In this document: positions 18,290 to 57,784 of the stretch, piece after piece
Position numbering within the stretch: the first letter of the stretch is position 1
Layout of the letters: each line of letters opens with the position of its first letter
Sequence record: PZ357121.2
From: a phage
Direction: 5' to 3' (one strand)
Length of the DNA stretch: 64,000 nucleotides
Notes under the pieces: model-generated
Told to the model about the DNA's origin: nothing
The model's database searches: none
What the model saw: the letters and a program-made list of their open reading frames with translations, nothing else
Translations under genes and position numbers: made by a program

Positions 18290-18353
18290 TTTATTCTCCG
18301 CTTCACTTTTGATTTGATAGGGCTACTATAACATAGCCCTATCTTGTTATAAA

Positions 18354-35228: not shown

Positions 35229-36554
35229 TCAAAGTGCCTCCAAGTCTTTAGTGTACTCTGTCACAACATCAGTAGACTTCCAATACTCATTTTCTTCTTT
35301 CTTAGCTTTAGCTTCTTCCGCTAGTTTACGTGCTTCGTCAGAAGTGATATGGAAGATGTTAAGGCCTACCAGTTTATCGACATGTTCTTTATACATTTCG
35401 ATTTGTGCTAGCTCTTCAGTCAAAGCTTTACGAGTCTTGCCCTGAATCACAATTTCGCCACTGATAACTTTTTTGATGAAGTGTGCCTTAGCAAAAGCCA
35501 GTTTAAATGCTTTTTCAGATTCAAGGATTTTGTTGTCAATACGTTTCTGAACGTAAGTCTTACGGACTTCAACAAAATCTTTGATTAAGTCCACTACATT
35601 ATCATAGACTGCTAATTTACCCTTTTCATTAATCACTGTGATGTTTTGTGAACGACGTTCGATGAGACTAAAATCTTTCATGATTTTTTCATGACGTAGC
35701 TCTTCATCATCAGGAAGCGAGTACTCTTTACGGAACTTCACCTTAAACCCAAAGCCGTGTTCACCGCAATCATCTTCCCATGAGATTAGACCTTTGTCTT
35801 CCAACGGGTCAAGAACCTTACTCACATACGTTTCACGGTCAAATTTATATGGGATTTCAGTTATCTGCATTTGAGTGCGAGATGTGAACTTATATGTTCC
35901 GTGAATCTCATAACGCCCATCAACTTCATGTACTTCACCACGGAATTCTGGGAATTCAACTTTTGGCTTAGTAACATTTTTACCTTGAAGAGCTTGTAAT
36001 ACAGCCTTTTTGACTGATTTAAAACTATGAGGCAGAATATTTGTTGCGTAACCGGTTGCAATACCAGAGACACCATTCAAAAGAACTGTCGGAATAATAG
36101 GAAGATAGAATTTTGGTGGAATGTGTTCTTTATCTTCATGAGCTGGAGCATATTCAGTATCTTTATATACGTTATAGAAATTTTTACTTACACGAGCAAA
36201 AATATAACGAGATGCTGCAGCTTTTTGGACTGTTCTAGAACCAAAGTTGCCTTGGCCATCTAACAGTGGATAGTTGTTGTTCCATGTGTTAGCCATCAAT
36301 GCACCTGCATCTTGTGCAGAGATTTCACCATGGTGATAACCTAAATCTGCAACACCGCCTGCAATTGACGCAAGTTTATGAAATTTTTCTTTATTACCAC
36401 GAGCCAAATCTAACGCACGATGAACCACAAAACGTTGAACCGGCTTAAATCCATCAATCATGTTTGGGATTGCACGGTTTTCAACGGTGTACATCGCATA
36501 TGCTAAGGCTTCGTTATCAATAATACTTTTTAGATTACGAGAATTCAATTGCAT
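35229..36554 (-). CDS. 52: DNA topoisomerase II medium subunit gp52
   Basis: 441 aa, GyrA-like N-terminus with active-site region (AMYTVENRAIPNMIDGFKPVQRF). Confidence 0.9.
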   Translation of the reverse strand: MQLNSRNLKSIIDNEALAYAMYTVENRAIPNMIDGFKPVQRFVVHRALDLARGNKEKFHKLASIAGGVADLGYHHGEISAQDAGALMANTWNNNYPLLDGQGNFGSRTVQKAAASRYIFARVSKNFYNVYKDTEYAPAHEDKEHIPPKFYLPIIPTVLLNGVSGIATGYATNILPHSFKSVKKAVLQALQGKNVTKPKVEFPEFRGEVHEVDGRYEIHGTYKFTSRTQMQITEIPYKFDRETYVSKVLDPLEDKGLISWEDDCGEHGFGFKVKFRKEYSLPDDEELRHEKIMKDFSLIERRSQNITVINEKGKLAVYDNVVDLIKDFVEVRKTYVQKRIDNKILESEKAFKLAFAKAHFIKKVISGEIVIQGKTRKALTEELAQIEMYKEHVDKLVGLNIFHITSDEARKLAEEAKAKKEENEYWKSTDVVTEYTKDLEAL

Positions 36555-36558
36555 ATTT

Positions 36559-36699
36559 TCACCATATTAATGAACGAATAACCATTATAACATCTGAAAT
36601 GAAAAGCACTACTTGGATTAGCCCAAACATCACACCGTAGTACAGAACCGTAAGCAAAAACAAGAGCCCGAAGGCTCCTGCTAAGATTTTCTTAATCAT
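36559..36699 (-). CDS. small hydrophobic peptide (46 aa), absent from the ORF track
   Basis: ATG at 36699 overlapping the stop of the upstream peptide (ATGA); single TM-like segment; stop 5 nt before the gene 52 ATG. Confidence 0.4.
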   Translation of the reverse strand: MIKKILAGAFGLLFLLTVLYYGVMFGLIQVVLFISDVIMVIRSLIW

Positions 36700-36845
36700 T
36701 GCTCGCCTTTTAATACGTTAAGAAGAGCTAAGACCGCTAAGGTACCTTGTGACACAGCCTGTTGAAATACTGTTGTTTCGCCTGTAACTAAAGTGTTAAC
36801 GAATAAAAACGACCAACACAGCAATGCAATAATCCATGCTACCAT
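36696..36845 (-). CDS. small hydrophobic peptide (49 aa), absent from the ORF track
   Basis: ATG at 36845 with GAGGTAATT RBS; predicted TM helix (MVAWIIALLCWSFLFVN); T4 has the 51-aa ac gene in this region. Confidence 0.4.
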   Translation of the reverse strand: MVAWIIALLCWSFLFVNTLVTGETTVFQQAVSQGTLAVLALLNVLKGEQ

Positions 36846-36897
36846 TTTAATTACCTCAAAAATAAATTAAAGGCCTAACTTAATAGGCCCGTATAAA

Positions 36898-37344
36898 TTA
36901 GTAACTCTGCAGAACGAATTTGAAATTATCTGCCAGAAGACGGTTCATTTCAGTGAGTGTTTGATATTCTGATGTATGATTGCGAGTGAATGCCAGAGCC
37001 AATTGTCCTTTACCATAACCAGTAGTCAGGGGTTTCATGTTCTTAGCTGCAACAAAGATTACATCATATTCAATATTGTTAGTGCCCATAGTACGGGCTA
37101 GTTGCGAACGGCCTTGACGAATGTGAGAAAGAATTGCATCCAACCCTTGTTTAGAACGTTGACGTCCTACAAAGAATCGTGCTGCTACTTGTCGCCAGTC
37201 AGATGAACCTTTAACAAAGAAGTAAAAACCTTCACGAGAACGAAACTCTTTAGAAACTTCAGAACCGTATTCGCCATTACGAACTACTGCAACAACTTCA
37301 CCGCCAACTGCCAGAAGGTCTTTACGAGTTAAATATTTGGACAT
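36898..37344 (-). CDS. ndd: nucleoid disruption protein Ndd
   Basis: 148 aa, high similarity to T4 Ndd as recalled (C-terminal ...[12 protein letters not shown]). Confidence 0.85.
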
Positions 37345-37381
37345 GCTAATTTCCTCAATTGATTAATGTTTTGTAATCCAT

Positions 37382-37417
37382 GAGAGCATTATACTCTGCT
37401 CTCAAGAGTTTGTACAA
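37382..37417 (-). promoter_or_regulatory. early promoter with hairpin cassette (second copy)
   Basis: gagagcattatactctgctctc; TATAAT on minus (plus 37388-37393) and TTGTAC -35; about 90 percent identical to the cassette at 8215-8249. Confidence 0.5.
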
Positions 37418-37419
37418 TT

Positions 37420-37620
37420 TTATTCGGTTATATCAGAACGTTCAAAAAGCTCTTCAACAGTTAAACATTCGGTGTCATCCTCAATAAAGAATCGGGTCCA
37501 ACACGTTGGGGCGATGCAGTTATGAGTTTGTCCGGCTATAGAAGCTACACGAATAAGCTGCTGACCATTATTCAGGACAAATTTTTCACCAATTTCAACA
37601 TCTTTAAAAAGCTTAGCCAT
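37420..37620 (-). CDS. hypothetical protein
   Basis: 66-aa ORF with two CxxC-like pairs. Confidence 0.5.
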   Translation of the reverse strand: MAKLFKDVEIGEKFVLNNGQQLIRVASIAGQTHNCIAPTCWTRFFIEDDTECLTVEELFERSDITE

Positions 37621-37680
37621 TTTGTATTCCTCGTGTTTTGATAGGACTACTATACCATAATCCTACCTTGATGTAAACAA

Positions 37681-37791
37681 TTAAATTACATTAAAATATG
37701 TCAAAGCCAACCATGTTCCAGTGAACGAACATGCGATGTAAAACCCCGTATCACAAATTGTTCTTAGTACAATAAGAAGTGCATTTTTCAT
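37681..37791 (-). CDS. small hydrophobic peptide (36 aa)
   Basis: ATG at 37791 with GAGGTA RBS, translationally coupled (ATGA) to the upstream 28-aa peptide. Confidence 0.35.
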   Translation of the reverse strand: MKNALLIVLRTICDTGFYIACSFTGTWLALTYFNVI

Positions 37792-37874
37792 AAGTACCTC
37801 AATACAATTGAAAATATTATACAAATCATAGGGATACTAAGCAACCATATTCCGATCCACATTTTAGAGCTCAT
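37788..37874 (-). CDS. small hydrophobic peptide (28 aa)
   Basis: ATG overlapping the stop of ORF 37871-38134; sequence MSSKMWIGIWLLSIPMICIIFSIVLRYL. Confidence 0.35.
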   Translation of the reverse strand: MSSKMWIGIWLLSIPMICIIFSIVLRYL

Positions 37875-38134
37875 ATCTCAACTTCCGCGAGTTCCATATA
37901 TCCTTTGTTGATAACCTCTTTAAGGTCTTTAGAAAGAATAACACTAAAATGGTCGTTCATATGTCCATTAACCAGACGAGTTATTTCGGCTTCAGATGAC
38001 ATATAAGGCACGTCTGAGTCCCAATGAGATAGACCCAAATGGGTATAAATCATCCCTTCGTCATCTGCAGTGTTGTACATTGAAACAAATTCGCCTGTTA
38101 CTTTATGTTTTGCGTAGAAAAATTTAAATTTCAT
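37871..38134 (-). CDS. hypothetical protein
   Basis: 87-aa ORF. Confidence 0.5.
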   Translation of the reverse strand: MKFKFFYAKHKVTGEFVSMYNTADDEGMIYTHLGLSHWDSDVPYMSSEAEITRLVNGHMNDHFSVILSKDLKEVINKGYMELAEVEI

Positions 38135-38202
38135 GATGTTATCCTCTTTTAGATAGGACTACTATATCATAGTCCTACTTAGTTGTAAACACTTTTATGA
38201 AA

Positions 38203-38823
38203 TTAAAGTTGAAGATACCACCCGTTGTAGTTGCTCTTGCGGACGATTTTCTTTAGGTCTTCATGGTCTCCCACGAACTTTATAGAATAAGAGAAGACGT
38301 CAGGTGAGGTTTCTTTGACATCTAATATAATAATGCAATCTGCGACTCGATGGTTCAAGAAGGGCCCTATGTTGATTCCGTTGCCGCCTGGATAATCACC
38401 ACTGTATCCTGTGGTAACAGAAATCCATTTAGAATCCATCTGATGTGTCTTGACTTCTACACGAATTCCACAATATTTGGGATGGGCCAACACGTCCCAT
38501 GCATACGTGTACGGGTCTTCTACGTCTTCAATACCTTTATTAACATATCCGTCTAGCCAATTTGCTACTACATACTCTGCAAAGACTGCAACCTTACAAC
38601 GTCGAACTACATCTTCTTTGTTTTGGTCTGGATTTTGGCTCAACGAATATCGAGCAGTGTCAGCAATCTTCACCTTCATTTCACTAGTCAAAAACTCATT
38701 CGACAGGATAAATGTCGGAAGACTCTTCAGTCTCAACAATCCCAAGTTCGTCTTTACCATAGATACCTCTGATGTGTAGTTCGCCAAAATAAATGCGGTC
38801 ACCTTCTTCAAGATATTCTGCAT
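38203..38823 (-). CDS. hypothetical protein in the denB position (possible nuclease)
   Basis: ORF in the position of T4 denB upstream of ndd; the track start is probably over-extended (internal ATG near 38679). Confidence 0.4.
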   Translation of the reverse strand: MQNILKKVTAFILANYTSEVSMVKTNLGLLRLKSLPTFILSNEFLTSEMKVKIADTARYSLSQNPDQNKEDVVRRCKVAVFAEYVVANWLDGYVNKGIEDVEDPYTYAWDVLAHPKYCGIRVEVKTHQMDSKWISVTTGYSGDYPGGNGINIGPFLNHRVADCIIILDVKETSPDVFSYSIKFVGDHEDLKKIVRKSNYNGWYLQL

Positions 38824-38983
38824 CTACCGGTGGGATTTCAATAACAACTTCGTCGCATTCTAACCAGCCGTAGTGTGCATCACCAGGATGTTTTACCAAT
38901 TTAGCACAATAAACTGATTTACACTTATGATGACCACGAAGATTAGCAATTTTGGATTCTGACACGTCAAATGGATGAATCAT
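38696..38983 (-). CDS. hypothetical protein
   Basis: Track ORF 38696-39022 runs into the rIIB terminator; ATG at 38983 with AGGGG RBS gives about 95 aa. Confidence 0.4.
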   Translation of the reverse strand: MIHPFDVSESKIANLRGHHKCKSVYCAKLVKHPGDAHYGWLECDEVVIEIPPVDAEYLEEGDRIYFGELHIRGIYGKDELGIVETEESSDIYPVE

Positions 38984-38994
38984 AATTACCCCTA

Positions 38995-39020
38995 AAGAAA
39001 AAAGGGGGACCGAAGTCCCC
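38995..39020 (-). terminator. intrinsic terminator downstream of rIIB
   Basis: ggggaccgaagtcccc followed on the minus strand by CTTTTTTTCTTT. Confidence 0.6.
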
Positions 39021-39025
39021 AATTA

Positions 39026-39973
39026 TTATTCTGCAAATAATTCAGTAACATCTGAAATTACTTCATAACGGCAAGTACGCATCTTAGCATCACCATAGTC
39101 AACTGGGATGGATACAACATCACGTGGATGAACTTTAACTTTCACAACTTTATCTGAGCTTGAACCAAAGTGGCGAATATAAGATTTAGCACAAACGTGG
39201 AGACCGCGAGAACAGGTTTGAGTATCATCGTCATTAACTCGAGTACGAGGCATTGAAACAACTTTACCTGGGGAGTTATCAAATGTACCACTATAGCAGT
39301 CTAAATAGTCCTTACGAACTACTTTCCATGCATAGAAATACCCATCTTCAGTGATTTCAATATCATTTGCAACCAAGAAGTCGAATAAACGTTGTACAGC
39401 TTTTTCGCTTGGGTTTTCTAACAGGTTTTCAAGGAACGGCAGATAGAATTTAAAGTCTTCACCTTTTTCCATGGAATCAATAATACGATTAACCAGTCCT
39501 GAACGAATTTCTATACCTTGATAAAATAAACTACCACCTTCAATAGTAACATTACCATCAACAAACTTACTAATAGCTTTCTTGATGTTAATAAGTTCGA
39601 CAGCTTTACTAAGGTTTCCTGCGACCAGATTAGCTTTAATTTCTTCAAAATTTGCATGACTTGATGGGGTCGCATTGTATGCTACGCGTCCTTCAATAAT
39701 TGAAATAAATTTAGATGACGCGTTCCATACGATTTCAGGACGATGTCCGCCGATAATAGGTTCATCATTTTCTGGAACTTCTTCGATTACATAAGAGGCA
39801 TCGTTTGCTTCAGGGACAACGCCTTCTGCTTTAAAATTCTTAACAATCTTACGAAGAGTATCTGTTGAAATGTCGAAGTAATCGGCAATTTCTTTACGAG
39901 TCCATTTGCCTGATTCAACCAGGCCGTAAGCTTCTAACTGTTCTTCTTGGGACAAGCATTTGATATTGTACAT
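39026..39973 (-). CDS. rIIB: rIIB
   Basis: 315 aa, high similarity to T4 rIIB (MYNIKCL..., C-terminal half nearly identical). Confidence 0.9.
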   Translation of the reverse strand: MYNIKCLSQEEQLEAYGLVESGKWTRKEIADYFDISTDTLRKIVKNFKAEGVVPEANDASYVIEEVPENDEPIIGGHRPEIVWNASSKFISIIEGRVAYNATPSSHANFEEIKANLVAGNLSKAVELINIKKAISKFVDGNVTIEGGSLFYQGIEIRSGLVNRIIDSMEKGEDFKFYLPFLENLLENPSEKAVQRLFDFLVANDIEITEDGYFYAWKVVRKDYLDCYSGTFDNSPGKVVSMPRTRVNDDDTQTCSRGLHVCAKSYIRHFGSSSDKVVKVKVHPRDVVSIPVDYGDAKMRTCRYEVISDVTELFAE

Positions 39974-39982
39974 AATGTTTCC

Positions 39983-42196
39983 TTATTTGGCCGCTTCCAC
40001 GGCCTTCATGAATTTAACGATTTGAGCGACCTGTTCTTTAGAAAGAGTACCACGTCGTCCCATGTATTCTGACACAATATGATAATTGGTTTCGAATTCA
40101 ATAACCATTTTATCATCATTATCGTAAGCATTATCTTTAAGCTTATCGAAAATTTTAGCACACAATTCTAACTTCCTGTTCAGGTCTCTGTTTTCAGCAC
40201 CTGCGAATCGATTCCATCCCCAACGATTATTTACTGTTGAGAGTTTTGCAAAATCTTTACTGATTTCTTTGTTTTTAGAGCTAAAATACTTACTAAGGAA
40301 GTTAAGCTCTTCATTACGAGTAATATGATTCAAATAAGGCTGTGCTCTACGACTTGGTGATACATACTCATCATAATCCACTTTATCGATTAGCGTAATA
40401 TAGTCATTAATTGATTTTTCGAACAAGCATTCTACTTCACCAAGTTTACGAACTTTCTTAGCAATCTGTGGACGAACTACAGTGAACTCTTTAATACCTG
40501 ACAAATCAGCAATACGAGTCAAGAAATTGGAGTCATAGTTCAACCAACCTTTATCTGCGTCAAGACATTCAGCGTTAGAACGATTACGAACTATAGCATA
40601 ACCTTGGATTTCATCTGCTTCACTTGCCGGAATAAAGAGGTCTTCTGATACCCAAACATCGTTTTCATTCTTAAAGAATCGATGAGCACTTGGCGATTTA
40701 GGACGAGGCTCATTAGTCCGTTTCCTGACTTCAATCCATGGCTTAACGATTTGTAAAAGCTCTGAAGTCTTGTACATGTTAATGTTGTCGCCATCAAAGA
40801 TAACTTTAAGGCGTTCCAGAAGTTTCATTGCATCTTCGTCTGTAGGGTCAACGAATAGTACGCTTTTACCAAAACCGCGTGGAACTTTACCAGTTAATTT
40901 AACCTCGTCTTTAGACATTTCAATTGAATTAAGAGCTCGCATTAATGGAACGCGTCCCTTAACGTCGTCAATAACGATTTCAACATTTTTAATGTTAATG
41001 CCAATCAGGCTGTTAATTGAAATGGTCGATGATGAGCTACCACTTTCACGAATACGACGAAGACGAGGGGATTCAACGATATCATATACGACGCCAAGAT
41101 TACACCACTCAGGCCCCATTTTAAAACGTTTGTACAACTCAGAATAAGTTAGTTGTTCTTTAGAGTATTTCAGTGATTCAATATTAGACCCGGCCTTTTC
41201 CATGTATTTACGAGCTGTATAGCCAAGAGAATCAATTTCACGGAACACATGACGTGGGTATTTACAATCAATCCATTTCTTAGAATCTTCAGCAAATAAT
41301 TTTGCATCGATTTCTGCAACACGTTTATGGATATTTGCTACTGTACGTTTATCAAATGACAATGCTTCACGAGACGGGGCGACATCTAGTTCACCCATAG
41401 GGAATTTAATATAAGCTGTAGTGCATCGCGTCATCATCCATGTTTGTTCTTTAATAACACTTCCGATTGGATATACAATACCACCGTAAACGGCCATGAT
41501 ATTACCACGTTCACCCCATGGAGCTTCCTTGGCCAAATATACATCGTCAAATTCAGGAAAGTATTTAATATCTTTAACACCACGAACTTCTGCAATATCA
41601 CCTAGAGGACGCATAACATATGCAATTTCAGATGCGAACTTTTCAAAATCTTCTGGGTTAACAGGCACAACTACTTCAACGCCAGTCCGGTCATCAGGAC
41701 CCATCTTATCTACGAAGGTCGGCTTAATCTGTGGACCACTGTCATCTTGATAAATTACATAACCACGAACTTCACCGTTGTGATAAGACGTAAGGTTAAA
41801 CGTATCGGTATATGCTAGTGGAGCTTTAGAGCCTAGTCCGAATCCACCAATGAAATCATTACTCGATGTTTTAGTTGAAGCAAAATATGAGTTATAGATT
41901 CCTGGCTCTTCGTCATTACCTCGAATGGTGAAATCACTCATACCAGGACCAAAGTCTCGAACTACAAAACGTGGGTCTAAACGACCTGGAGCCTGAACAA
42001 TAAACTTATCAGTGCAACCATTAAGAATTTGTCCATCGATACAGTTTGTGATTAATTCACGTACACAAGCCAATTCTTTGTTTGTATAAAGGTCATTAGA
42101 CAAAATCTTATAAACTTTACTATTGCCTTGAATAGTAAATGCTGTGCTCTTACCGCCTGAACCAATAATCGTTTCTTTAGCCGTTTCAATAATCAT
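39983..42196 (-). CDS. rIIA: rIIA
   Basis: 737 aa, N-terminus MIIETAKETIIGSGGKSTAF as in T4 rIIA. Confidence 0.9.
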   Translation of the reverse strand: MIIETAKETIIGSGGKSTAFTIQGNSKVYKILSNDLYTNKELACVRELITNCIDGQILNGCTDKFIVQAPGRLDPRFVVRDFGPGMSDFTIRGNDEEPGIYNSYFASTKTSSNDFIGGFGLGSKAPLAYTDTFNLTSYHNGEVRGYVIYQDDSGPQIKPTFVDKMGPDDRTGVEVVVPVNPEDFEKFASEIAYVMRPLGDIAEVRGVKDIKYFPEFDDVYLAKEAPWGERGNIMAVYGGIVYPIGSVIKEQTWMMTRCTTAYIKFPMGELDVAPSREALSFDKRTVANIHKRVAEIDAKLFAEDSKKWIDCKYPRHVFREIDSLGYTARKYMEKAGSNIESLKYSKEQLTYSELYKRFKMGPEWCNLGVVYDIVESPRLRRIRESGSSSSTISINSLIGINIKNVEIVIDDVKGRVPLMRALNSIEMSKDEVKLTGKVPRGFGKSVLFVDPTDEDAMKLLERLKVIFDGDNINMYKTSELLQIVKPWIEVRKRTNEPRPKSPSAHRFFKNENDVWVSEDLFIPASEADEIQGYAIVRNRSNAECLDADKGWLNYDSNFLTRIADLSGIKEFTVVRPQIAKKVRKLGEVECLFEKSINDYITLIDKVDYDEYVSPSRRAQPYLNHITRNEELNFLSKYFSSKNKEISKDFAKLSTVNNRWGWNRFAGAENRDLNRKLELCAKIFDKLKDNAYDNDDKMVIEFETNYHIVSEYMGRRGTLSKEQVAQIVKFMKAVEAAK

Positions 42197-45950: not shown

Positions 45951-46130
45951 TTAACCCTTCTTAAGTAAGTCGTAAAAACCACCGTTCACATGTTTAGGAG
46001 CAGAAACCCGACGAGTAGACAGACGATGACATTCAGGGCAAACATCGTTTTCTCGTTCAGAAATTCTTTTAATTTTTTCATATTCATGACCACAATCTTC
46101 AGATTGGCATTTATAGTCGTATAACGGCAT
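45951..46130 (-). CDS. zinc-ribbon protein (FmdB-like CxxC...CxxC), 59 aa, absent from the ORF track
   Basis: Minus ORF MPLYDYKCQSEDCGHEYEKIKRISERENDVCPECHRLSTRRVSAP...; two CxxC pairs about 22 residues apart. Confidence 0.5.
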   Translation of the reverse strand: MPLYDYKCQSEDCGHEYEKIKRISERENDVCPECHRLSTRRVSAPKHVNGGFYDLLKKG

Positions 46131-52760: not shown

Positions 52761-53217
52761 CGAGATAAAAACTAGCAGGTTCAGAGAATGTTTCTAGTGC
52801 TACACCTTTTGTCTTAAAAAATTTCCAAATAGCCCGTTGCAAGTGGATTAAATCTGCTAATGATGTAATAAAGTATTTTTTGGCAAAATACTTATGGTCT
52901 CGCTTTTCAAACAAGTCTAAACGCTTTTCAGGATTCACATAAACTGCATTTTCCGTGGATTCATAACCTAAGTCCTTTATGCCTTCTTCAAGACTAAACG
53001 GAGAATTTTTAGAATGAGTAATAGCTCCAACTCGCTCTACACGAATTTTGTAACCTTTAGGAATCTGCAATTTACAGAATTCTTCTACGATATATTGCGG
53101 ATTATTTAGACTTTTGTTAATGAGAATAGCTATTTCTAGTGGAGTCTTATCTTCTACTGGTATATGTTTAAACGACTTGGCTTCAAGCAAATACATTTTA
53201 AATAACATAGCATCCAT
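52753..53217 (-). CDS. hypothetical protein (mrh-region)
   Basis: 154-aa ORF. Confidence 0.5.
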   Translation of the reverse strand: MDAMLFKMYLLEAKSFKHIPVEDKTPLEIAILINKSLNNPQYIVEEFCKLQIPKGYKIRVERVGAITHSKNSPFSLEEGIKDLGYESTENAVYVNPEKRLDLFEKRDHKYFAKKYFITSLADLIHLQRAIWKFFKTKGVALETFSEPASFYLGE

Positions 53218-53392
53218 TATAATTTCCTCGATGGTTCACCCATATAAAGTTTTACAATACGTTCGCCTTCATCTTCGATGAGCTTCTCTTCGTGTTTCTG
53301 GAATTCTTTAGCCATATTCTCTTCAAGAACATCCAGCCAATCTTCTGGTTCGACTCCATCATTCCAGCTTTTAAACCATTTTACTATTTTGT

Positions 53393-53716
53393 TCATTCAC
53401 AGCTTCCTGAGCTTGAACCACAATCAGAATAACTTGACCCAGAATCACCAGGCCAAGACGATACATATGAATGATTATAATCGGAAGAGCTTGAAGCATT
53501 AACCTGTTTTGTTTTTGGACGAACAACTTCTTCCATCATTCCGTCACCGTTATATTCCCAACTTTTTTCATGTGTATCAGGAATAGGCATCATACCTTCG
53601 CCTGGATTAACAGCAAACAACTTCTTCAGCATCGTAAGCATTAATTGTTCCTCGAACAAAACGAACACCACCATCATCCCAACGAATTTCGGCATTAAAT
53701 TTGACGTCTTCACCAT
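53393..53716 (-). CDS. hypothetical Ser-rich protein
   Basis: ORF with a C-terminal S/G/C-rich tail; track start probably over-extended (internal ATG near 53641). Confidence 0.4.
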   Translation of the reverse strand: MVKTSNLMPKFVGMMVVFVLFEEQLMLTMLKKLFAVNPGEGMMPIPDTHEKSWEYNGDGMMEEVVRPKTKQVNASSSSDYNHSYVSSWPGDSGSSYSDCGSSSGSCE

Positions 53717-54743: not shown

Positions 54744-54833
54744 TATTTTTCCTTTCAATTCAGTATAAGAGAGTTTAATTCTAACATTAATTTTATAAAG
54801 CGTAATAAATAATAAGGTAACTAAGGAGATATT

Positions 54834-55031
54834 ATGTTTAAACTTCCATCGTTAATCAACGCTATTAAAGGCAATAAAAAGAAAACTGCTATCGCTGCAA
54901 TAGTTGTAGGTGGCATTATTTCGTGGAACTTCGGGATTGCGCCATTGTTAGTTGCCCATGGTGTTATGGTTCCTTCTGTTCCATTGGATACTGTAGTTGA
55001 TTTGGCCTTTGCTATTATAGGGCTTGTTTAA
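54834..55031 (+). CDS. small membrane protein on the opposite strand
   Basis: 65 aa with strong AAGGAG RBS and two hydrophobic segments; convergent with gene 61. Confidence 0.4.
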   Translation: MFKLPSLINAIKGNKKKTAIAAIVVGGIISWNFGIAPLLVAHGVMVPSVPLDTVVDLAFAIIGLV

Positions 55032-57721: not shown

Positions 57722-57784
57722 TTTAACTCCTTAGTTGATTTGATAGGACTACTATACTATAGTCCATTTATAATGTAAACAACT

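Follow-up and report, generated by a model that had tools for sequence, protein, structure and literature searches.

Two very short reading frames of 28 and 36 codons, here called ORF A and ORF B, overlap end to start in a 64,000-nucleotide stretch of phage DNA (sequence record PZ357121.2; hereafter the window), and they raise the question of whether frames of this size are genes at all and, if so, where they belong and what their products might do. The explanation that best accounts for the whole of the evidence, and which we hold to be likely, is that both are real genes for microproteins, coupled in translation and situated in the denB-ndd early region of an RB69-like Mosigvirus. Neither is new, for each frame has been predicted as a gene before: NCBI lists a peptide identical to ORF A as bas46_0096 and bas47_0098, and one identical to ORF B, with gene calls on 116 contigs, under JS09_0184 and many other names. 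Their layout reproduces that of ndd.6 and ndd.5 in phage T4, where ndd.6 has been annotated since the T4 genome.

The window is that of a Mosigvirus, that is, an RB69-like T-even phage; about 150 Mosigvirus genomes are 97-99% identical to it over the mini-ORF stretch. Around the pair the gene order is that of T4 (rIIB-denB-ORF270c-[A-B]-ndd.1-ndd-ac-52.1-52), and the two frames lie in the denB-ndd hyperplastic early region (table 1). Every gene of this neighbourhood is on the minus strand. The open frame of ORF B extends to 47 aa in the ORF listing if started at an upstream TTG. Neither ORF A nor ORF B has a family in Pfam, and a search of Rfam over positions 36400-39100 returned no family match, a lone chance match to TarB falling far below threshold.

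Table 1.— Features of the mini-ORF neighbourhood, with positions in the window.
Feature	Coordinates	Strand	Product or sequence	Assignment or basis
rIIA	39983-42196	(-)		
rIIB	39026-39973	(-)		
denB	within 38203-38823	(-)		
Upstream PeSL-type early promoter with embedded stem-loop	38154..38189	(-)		Upstream of ORF270c-A-B; promoter scan, fold
-35 of upstream PeSL	38189-38184	(-)	TTTACA	
-10 of upstream PeSL	38166-38161	(-)	TATAGT	
Palindrome of upstream PeSL	38177-38154	(-)	TAGGACTA..TAGTCCTA	
RB69 ORF270c-family gene	37871..38134	(-)	87 aa, soluble	phrog_2390; stop overlaps ORF A start
ORF A	37874..37788	(-)	28 aa, MSSKMWIGIWLLSIPMICIIFSIVLRYL	T4 ndd.6 ortholog (by sequence), phrog_8851
Shine-Dalgarno for ORF B	37800..37795	(-)	GAGGTA	Embedded in last codons of ORF A
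ORF B	37791..37681	(-)	36 aa from ATG, MKNALLIVLRTICDTGFYIACSFTGTWLALTYFNVI	phrog_18561; T4 ndd.5 position
Second PeSL-type element	37642..37677	(-)		Closes the unit; predicted promoter of ndd.1; promoter match 37677-37649
ndd.1 homolog	37420..37620	(-)	66 aa	phrog_2183; next gene downstream of ORF B
ndd	36898-37344	(-)		
ac	36696-36845	(-)		phrog_2501
52.1	36559-36699	(-)		phrog_3595, Pfam DUF7396
Gene 52	35229-36554	(-)		

The junctions can be read directly. As the first-pass annotation had described, the ATG of ORF A (37874-37872) overlaps the TGA of ORF270c (37873-37871), and the ATG of ORF B (37791-37789) overlaps the TGA of ORF A (37790-37788), each in the form ATGA. The GAGGTA ribosome-binding site that it had named is also present, ahead of ORF B, with 3 nt (CTT) between the hexamer and the ATG and 5 nt after its GAGG core. 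This Shine-Dalgarno (SD) sequence is kept in 20 of the 21 Mosigvirus sequences sampled, the exception being phage F2, which reads GAGATA. Architecture of this kind is in itself statistically ordinary: a scan of the whole window finds small, hydrophobic, ATGA-overlapping ORFs on the non-coding plus strand as well, so that the layout alone does not go beyond chance, and it is conservation in relatives that makes the pair more than a chance arrangement.

That conservation is strongest for ORF A. Against the PHROG profiles, ORF A matches the Ndd.6 family phrog_8851 with E 3.7e-11, its residues 1-28 falling on profile positions 1-28, while T4 Ndd.6 itself scores E 1.6e-17. The T4 peptide (MSSLWWCFVWLISIPVICLTFTFVMRLL; T4p275, UniProt P39248, entered as an [quoted passage not shown]) is likewise of 28 aa and is identical to ORF A at 15 of 28 residues (54%; Smith-Waterman z 10.6), sharing M1, S2, S3, W6, W10, S13-I14-P15, I17-C18 and F21. 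Both genes stand downstream of denB in an early-promoter context, and both have ATGA overlaps with the upstream frame and with the following mini-ORF; ORF A follows a full-length ORF270c, whereas T4 ndd.6 follows an 8-codon remnant. With the 28-aa peptide as query, tblastn returns hundreds of T-even genomes, matched where ndd.6 lies. The ORF is present in at least six genera (Mosigvirus, Tequatrovirus, Gaprivervirus, Dhakavirus, Gelderlandvirus and Kanagawavirus) and also in IMG/VR contigs. ORF A has the core MSS(K)xW...W..(S/C)IPxIC..F and the length of 27-29 aa that mark Ndd.6 peptides, and it lies where they lie, in the denB-ndd interval, on the early strand and downstream of a predicted early promoter. 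Judged by these comparisons, ORF A is the ortholog of T4 ndd.6, an assignment that we consider strongly supported. A Cys at position 7, frequent elsewhere, is missing from the Mosigvirus copy.

Selection acts on ORF A as on a coding sequence. Counted by simple nearest-codon parsimony without a tree, over 21 Mosigvirus genomes that form a small and phylogenetically non-independent sample, substitution events in ORF A number 5 synonymous and 2 nonsynonymous (omega ~0.09, binomial p 0.003); the wrong frames give omega 0.6-1.7, and pairwise estimates agree. The same counts in the neighbours are 21 synonymous and 9 nonsynonymous for ORF270c (omega ~0.10, p 3.3e-9) and 16 and 5 for ndd.1 (omega ~0.08, p 1.3e-7). 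Across genera, where pS approaches saturation, ORF A has a pooled pN/pS of 0.34 and its two wrong frames have 1.14 and 1.86; between Mosigvirus and the other genera the peptide is 54-61% identical while the DNA is only 53-64% identical. Frame-disrupting variants of ndd.6 were seen in one Tequatrovirus contig (L034) and in Yersinia phage P8; these could be homopolymer sequencing errors or a sign of dispensability. Overall, ORF A is very likely a real gene.

The contrary proposal, that neither frame codes and that both are chance ORFs in T-rich sequence, conserved through RNA structure or through promoter and terminator elements, could appeal to the ordinary layout with its antisense look-alikes, to a terminator-like hairpin predicted inside ORF B (37733-37712), and to T4 proteomics, in which neither Ndd.5 nor Ndd.6 was detected by mass spectrometry (PMC9697503 Table S2), a result that is expected for hydrophobic peptides of 28-32 aa, yet negative. 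Against it, substitutions concentrate at synonymous sites only in the annotated frames, the ORF A peptide is retained across genera in which its synonymous sites are near saturation, and its N-terminus is kept even where the start codon changes from ATG to TTG (see below). In addition, Rfam gave no match, and the hairpin was rejected as the cause of ORF B conservation, since a synonymous TGT-to-TGC change breaks its stem in some genomes. For ORF A a non-coding origin is already disfavoured, and for the pair as a whole we regard it as extremely improbable.

What kind of product ORF A specifies can be predicted with some clarity. Its best 19-residue Kyte-Doolittle window reaches 2.62, which is clearly transmembrane-like, and the peptide is predicted to be essentially one transmembrane helix, running from W6 to L25 with short polar ends. 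The first-pass annotation had called both products hydrophobic, and this stands for ORF A, whereas ORF B, at 1.56, is borderline. In an alignment of seven Ndd.6 sequences M1, S3, W6, W10, I14, P15 and C18 are invariant, and in twelve distinct sequences from several genera M1, S2, S3, W6, W10, I14, P15 and C18 are, the invariance of S2 and S3 being qualified by the Kanagawavirus peptide, which is gapped at position 2/3 in the seven-sequence alignment. Conservation along the peptide is periodic, with a peak at 90-100 degrees per residue (shuffle p 0.014); this helical periodicity would place W6, W10, I14-P15 and C18 on one face of the helix.

In Mosigvirus and in T4 alike the SD of ndd.6 itself is weak, consisting of GAG only, which leads us to infer termination-reinitiation: ORF A is probably translated by ribosomes that have just finished ORF270c. 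In Gaprivervirus, Dhakavirus and additional T-even contigs of similar sequence, the start codon of ndd.6 is a TTG, overlapping the TGA that ends the upstream ORF270c homolog (...GAG GTG ATA TTT TGA / TTG AGC AGC AAA...), with a strong GGAGGTG ahead. Since the N-terminus SSK.W is kept despite the change from ATG to TTG, the start site of ndd.6 is fixed and the coupling through a 4-nt overlap is conserved. Mosigvirus, Tequatrovirus, Gaprivervirus and Dhakavirus share this overlap of the ndd.6 start with the stop of the ORF270c homolog, and the coupling architecture is in our view strongly supported. The full layout, an 87-aa ORF270c homolog, ATGA, ndd.6, ATGA and ndd.5, is present in Tequatrovirus genomes such as PYps35T. 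In T4, codons 1-79 of the ORF270c homolog have been deleted between two AAATGAAA repeats, leaving an 8-codon ORF (MKIAEIEL*) that has kept the SD of the longer gene and still joins ndd.6 through ATGA. Gelderlandvirus is an exception (e.g. SEA1), with ndd.6 directly after the promoter, an SD of its own (GAGGTAAT) and no ORF270c, and in Kanagawavirus ndd.6 is coupled to an unrelated upstream ORF. Some Tequatrovirus contigs carry upstream ORFs of 120 aa, which were considered as a different gene and rejected: they are the ORF270c homolog of 87 aa once more, read from an earlier in-frame ATG situated over the promoter.

Such a persistent junction invites the idea that the coupling ensures joint synthesis of two partners, with Ndd.6 anchoring the ORF270c-family protein in the membrane or serving as its partner subunit. 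Conservation of the 4-nt overlap in four genera, even with a TTG start, would fit this, as would one assembled Tequatrovirus contig (P0014) in which one extra G at the junction fuses ORF270c and Ndd.6 in frame. However, that fusion was seen once, in an assembly from a single SRA run, and may be an error, while T4 has deleted 79 of the 87 codons of its ORF270c homolog with ndd.6 intact, SEA1 has ndd.6 without ORF270c, and the upstream ORF of Kanagawavirus is a different one altogether; the structural model of ORF270c, for its part, is confident but has no informative structural neighbour. We find a partnership of this kind quite unlikely.

ORF B presents a different picture. It matches phrog_18561 over its full length (E 1.4e-29) and no other PHROG, tblastn finds it in 153 phage records, all of Mosigvirus type, and phmmer against 1.84 billion representative proteins recovers only its own cluster. 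Its similarity to Ndd.5, Ndd.2, Ndd.2a, Ndd.3, Ndd.4, Stp, Ac and gp52.1 does not rise above that of shuffled controls. By sequence, then, ORF B is an orphan restricted to Mosigvirus that occupies the slot of T4 ndd.5. The resemblance to T4 ndd.5 (T4p274, 32 aa, phrog_5011) is one of place and form: both are second cistrons after ndd.6, entered through ATGA, beginning with MK, hydrophobic, served by a GAGGT SD inside the 3' end of ndd.6 (GAGGTT at the equivalent place in T4), and followed directly by an early promoter. The two nevertheless belong to different PHROG families, and their Smith-Waterman z is 0.8. Thus, with no sequence similarity between them, ORF B is a positional analog of Ndd.5 and not a demonstrable homolog. 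In Gaprivervirus, Dhakavirus, Gelderlandvirus and Kanagawavirus there is no second ORF, and the next promoter comes directly after ndd.6.

Constraint on ORF B is detectable but loose. The parsimony counts over the same 21 genomes give 10 synonymous and 11 nonsynonymous events (9 nonsynonymous without the disrupted F2 copy), with omega ~0.33 and binomial p 0.011, against omega 0.5 (p 0.11) and 2.0 in the wrong frames; variant proteins are over-represented in the sample, a bias that works against the detection of constraint. Replacements are conservative (L/I, I/V, R/K, T/S, I/F) and fall in residues 6-16, residues 17-36 being nearly invariant, with T26S and F33L alone. Preservation of the frames in related genomes, on which the first-pass annotation had staked its claim, holds for ORF A across several genera and for ORF B in about 150 of 153 Mosigvirus records, among them p000y, whose 3-nt deletion stays in frame. 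The three others carry homopolymer frameshifts: in PECP20 and KAW3E185 the length changes lie within the ACGGGGTTTT run, and in F2 an A5 has become A6 just after the ATG, in addition to the altered SD. These may be sequencing errors or real losses.

Could ORF A be real, then, and ORF B yield no functional protein, being a young or decaying frame left behind by cassette exchange, or one of which the act of translation alone matters, for example because ribosomes passing over it protect the early message in its 3' part, as far as the PeSL (promoter/stem-loop) hairpin? Much in the record of ORF B is compatible with this: it is an orphan of one genus, unrelated to Ndd.5 or any neighbouring peptide, in a position that holds no second ORF in four other genera; its omega of ~0.3 is 3-4 times that of its neighbours; its frame is disrupted in three isolates, in one of which the SD is mutated too; its hydropathy is borderline; and exchange mediated by PeSLs has been documented at the ndd.4/.5 slot (PMC4122927). 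Yet start, SD, ATGA overlap and stop are all kept in 20 of 21 sampled genomes, the one in-frame deletion preserves the frame, nonsynonymous events fall below the neutral expectation in spite of the variant-enriched sample and do so in no wrong frame, and the C-terminal 20 residues hardly vary. On balance we think a non-functional ORF B unlikely, if the most serious of the alternatives considered here, and we retain the reading in which both members of the pair are genes: ORF B is a probable one, the less secure of the two and under the weakest constraint among the four genes compared.

The unit to which the pair belongs is delimited on both sides by PeSL elements. Of all sigma-70-type matches on the minus strand, these two rank highest (TTTACA-17-TATAGT, 10/12, with extended TG), and both fit the T4/PST consensus TTTACW-N17-TAYWAT (consensus from PMC4122927). 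Their hairpins are of 10-11 bp without a U-tract, with a predicted RNA folding energy of -13.5 kcal/mol for the upstream element and of -15.1 kcal/mol (z -3.1) for the second, and the composite pattern occurs 4 times in the window against 0 expected. An early promoter consensus together with a stem-loop is hence found on either side of the unit, and the early-promoter context of the pair is strongly supported. PeSLs have been proposed to mediate the shuffling of cassettes in hyperplastic regions, and ndd.4/.5 was named as one such exchanged cassette (Comeau, Arbiol & Krisch 2014; PMC4122927). ORF270c-A-B resembles the PeSL-flanked cassettes of T4-like phages (Arbiol 2010; PMC4122927) in lying between two near-identical elements in a hyperplastic region, with a gene content between the elements that varies among genera; it differs from them in that, besides the PeSLs, the junction between ndd.6 and the second ORF, inside the cassette, is a variable boundary. 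In the record of Mosigvirus phage SA35RD the equivalent stem-loops are labelled as rho-independent terminators.

On this arrangement, we suggest that the upstream PeSL promoter would transcribe ORF270c-A-B as one early message, of which ORF A and ORF B would be the second and third cistrons, coupled in translation, so that both peptides would be made in the first minutes of infection. For the T4 counterparts, transcripts of ndd.5 and ndd.6 were both classed as early (PMC9697503 Table S2). ORF B would then be an accessory peptide of more recent origin and under looser constraint, placed where cassettes are readily exchanged.

Another pair of small frames, at 36559-36845, had been put forward as sharing the same architecture, and from this recurrence a family of small membrane peptides had been proposed. 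That pair consists of two annotated T4-family genes, Ac and gp52.1. The likeness is partial: the second ATG does overlap the stop of the first frame, but the first ATG does not overlap an upstream stop, Ac starting about 50 nt after the stop of ndd with a GAGGTA of its own. The proposed family does not survive comparison, for the four mini-ORFs fall into four PHROGs (8851, 18561, 2501 and 3595), align pairwise no better than shuffled sequences (z < 1.3), and include only one, gp52.1, that matches DUF7396. Four unrelated families mean that what recurs is architecture and not homology; "family" holds only in the sense of a recurring gene style of T-even early regions, recognised since the T4 genome was annotated.

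As to function, both peptides would be expected to insert into the inner membrane. Small transmembrane regulators of bacteria such as AcrZ, MgtS, PmrR and KdpF are single-helix peptides of fewer than 50 aa. The T4 products Ac and gp52.1 are, like Ndd.6, built on this plan, and the conserved face of the Ndd.6 helix is what one would expect if the helix docked on another protein of the membrane; neither these regulators nor Ac and gp52.1 bear any sequence relationship to it. It is thus plausible that Ndd.6 is a single transmembrane helix that binds a specific membrane partner, of host or phage, through its conserved face. When 185,579 species genomes of bacteria and archaea were scanned for Ndd.6-like peptides, no relative could be confirmed; neither a prophage source nor imitation of a small host protein is therefore supported.

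Experiments in T4 bear on how much the phage depends on these peptides. A genome-wide CRISPRi-ART screen scored knockdown of ndd.5 and of ndd.6 as "Not Fit", that is, without fitness cost (PMC11879866 supplement), and both genes lie inside the viable deletion saDelta9, in which phage are produced at about half the wild-type rate and the T4 stimulation of phospholipid synthesis is abolished (PMC6071114); the same source describes the products of ndd.1-ndd.6 as unknown. By analogy with their T4 counterparts, neither mini-ORF gene appears to be needed in the laboratory. In the literature searched, neither ndd.5 nor ndd.6 has been the subject of functional work, the HIDEN-SEQ preprint is silent on both, and nothing of relevance turned up on ribosome profiling of T4. 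Ndd.6 may accordingly be pictured as an accessory factor of host takeover, of benefit in some hosts or conditions only. A more specific version, in which the W6-W10-I14/P15-C18 face docks early on a specific host inner-membrane protein and Ndd.6 then acts, possibly with the second peptide, either as the 52.1-denB determinant of phospholipid stimulation or as a host-range or defence factor in non-laboratory hosts, is speculative, and we give it a low probability. Even so, a conserved early microprotein, predicted to be transmembrane and encoded in a region whose deletion alters host lipid synthesis, is a reasonable target for study.

The main import of the locus is one of annotation hygiene, and current understanding stands. 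Length thresholds do miss both frames, as the first-pass annotation had supposed: the RB69 reference record leaves the ORF A/ORF B interval unannotated, and the exact ORF A peptide is called on 2-3 contigs only, while tblastn finds it identical in 91 phage records. Because the RB69 reference and most Mosigvirus records omit the 28-aa gene, comparative and functional screens that rely on annotation are blind to Ndd.6. Labels, where present, can also mislead. The database description "outer membrane protein", attached to Ndd.6 and Ndd.5, finds no support in the sequence: ORF A does not have the length of a beta-barrel, and the lipobox [LVI][ASTVI][GAS]C is absent, its sole Cys (C18) being preceded by P-M-I within a single hydrophobic helix.

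Upstream of ndd.6, the T4 ortholog of the 28-aa mini-ORF A, wild-type T4 carries an unannotated eight-codon ORF (MKIAEIEL followed by a stop; NC_000866, record 166993-167019). As comparison with positions 541-804 of the Tequatrovirus PYps35T shows, it is the remnant of the 87-aa ORF270c-family gene found in other Tequatroviruses: codons 1-79 of the T4 homolog have been deleted between two AAATGAAA repeats, and what is left still has the Shine-Dalgarno sequence, an initiation codon and the ATGA overlap with ndd.6. On a Logan contig from SRR25011005 (L050, 701-1048), one additional G where the two genes meet (GAGATTGGAACTATGAGT) places Ndd.6 in the reading frame of the ORF270c homolog, giving a fused product of 115 aa (P0014). 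This fusion occurs only once, on that contig, and is either natural or an assembly error. The ndd.6 gene itself is frameshifted in two records. An additional G in GAGG produces an 83-aa read-through in one Tequatrovirus isolate genome (L034, 1201-1452), and one T is missing near the 3' end in Yersinia phage vB_YenM_P8 (L018, about 901-975). Both changes sit at homopolymers and may be either real or sequencing errors.

Within the 36-aa mini-ORF B, a terminator-like hairpin is predicted (37712-37733, minus strand; CATGTTC-N8-GAACATG); it is probably fortuitous, since a synonymous TGT-to-TGC change disrupts its stem in some Mosigvirus genomes. A composite of an early promoter and an embedded palindrome, defined by the pattern TTTACA-N6-TAGGAYTA-N8-TAGTCCTA, is found in four copies in the window, against none expected by chance. 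The four look like the PeSL elements (early promoter with stem-loop) of T4-like phages, which have been proposed to mediate cassette shuffling. The spaces that separate larger genes on the coding strand hold three additional predicted ORFs shorter than 60 aa (see table).

Composite elements and additional small ORFs in the window
Feature	Position	Strand	Basis or setting
Composite promoter/palindrome	38154-38189	minus	pattern match
Composite promoter/palindrome	37642-37677	minus	pattern match
Composite promoter/palindrome	57744-57779	minus	pattern match
Composite promoter/palindrome	18318-18353	minus	pattern match
Predicted 33-aa ORF, C-terminus hydrophobic	45986-46087	minus	gap between larger genes
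Predicted 31-aa ORF, hydrophobic	54821-54916	minus	gap between larger genes
Predicted 59-aa ORF, non-hydrophobic; ATG overlaps upstream stop	53217-53396	minus	gap between larger genes

The start of denB is annotated inconsistently across Mosigvirus records: the gene is given 158 aa (477 nt) in RB69 but 185 aa (558 nt) in others, while in the window its frame is open for 206 aa (38203-38823, minus strand), the long version overlapping an ORF272c-like gene (38696-39022, minus strand). Furthermore, the names "naphthalene 1,2-dioxygenase" and "clamp loader small subunit" are given in several GenBank records (the L018, L047 and L048 tables) to small genes that are ndd, ndd.1-like or ndd.4-like, evidently automated mis-annotations.
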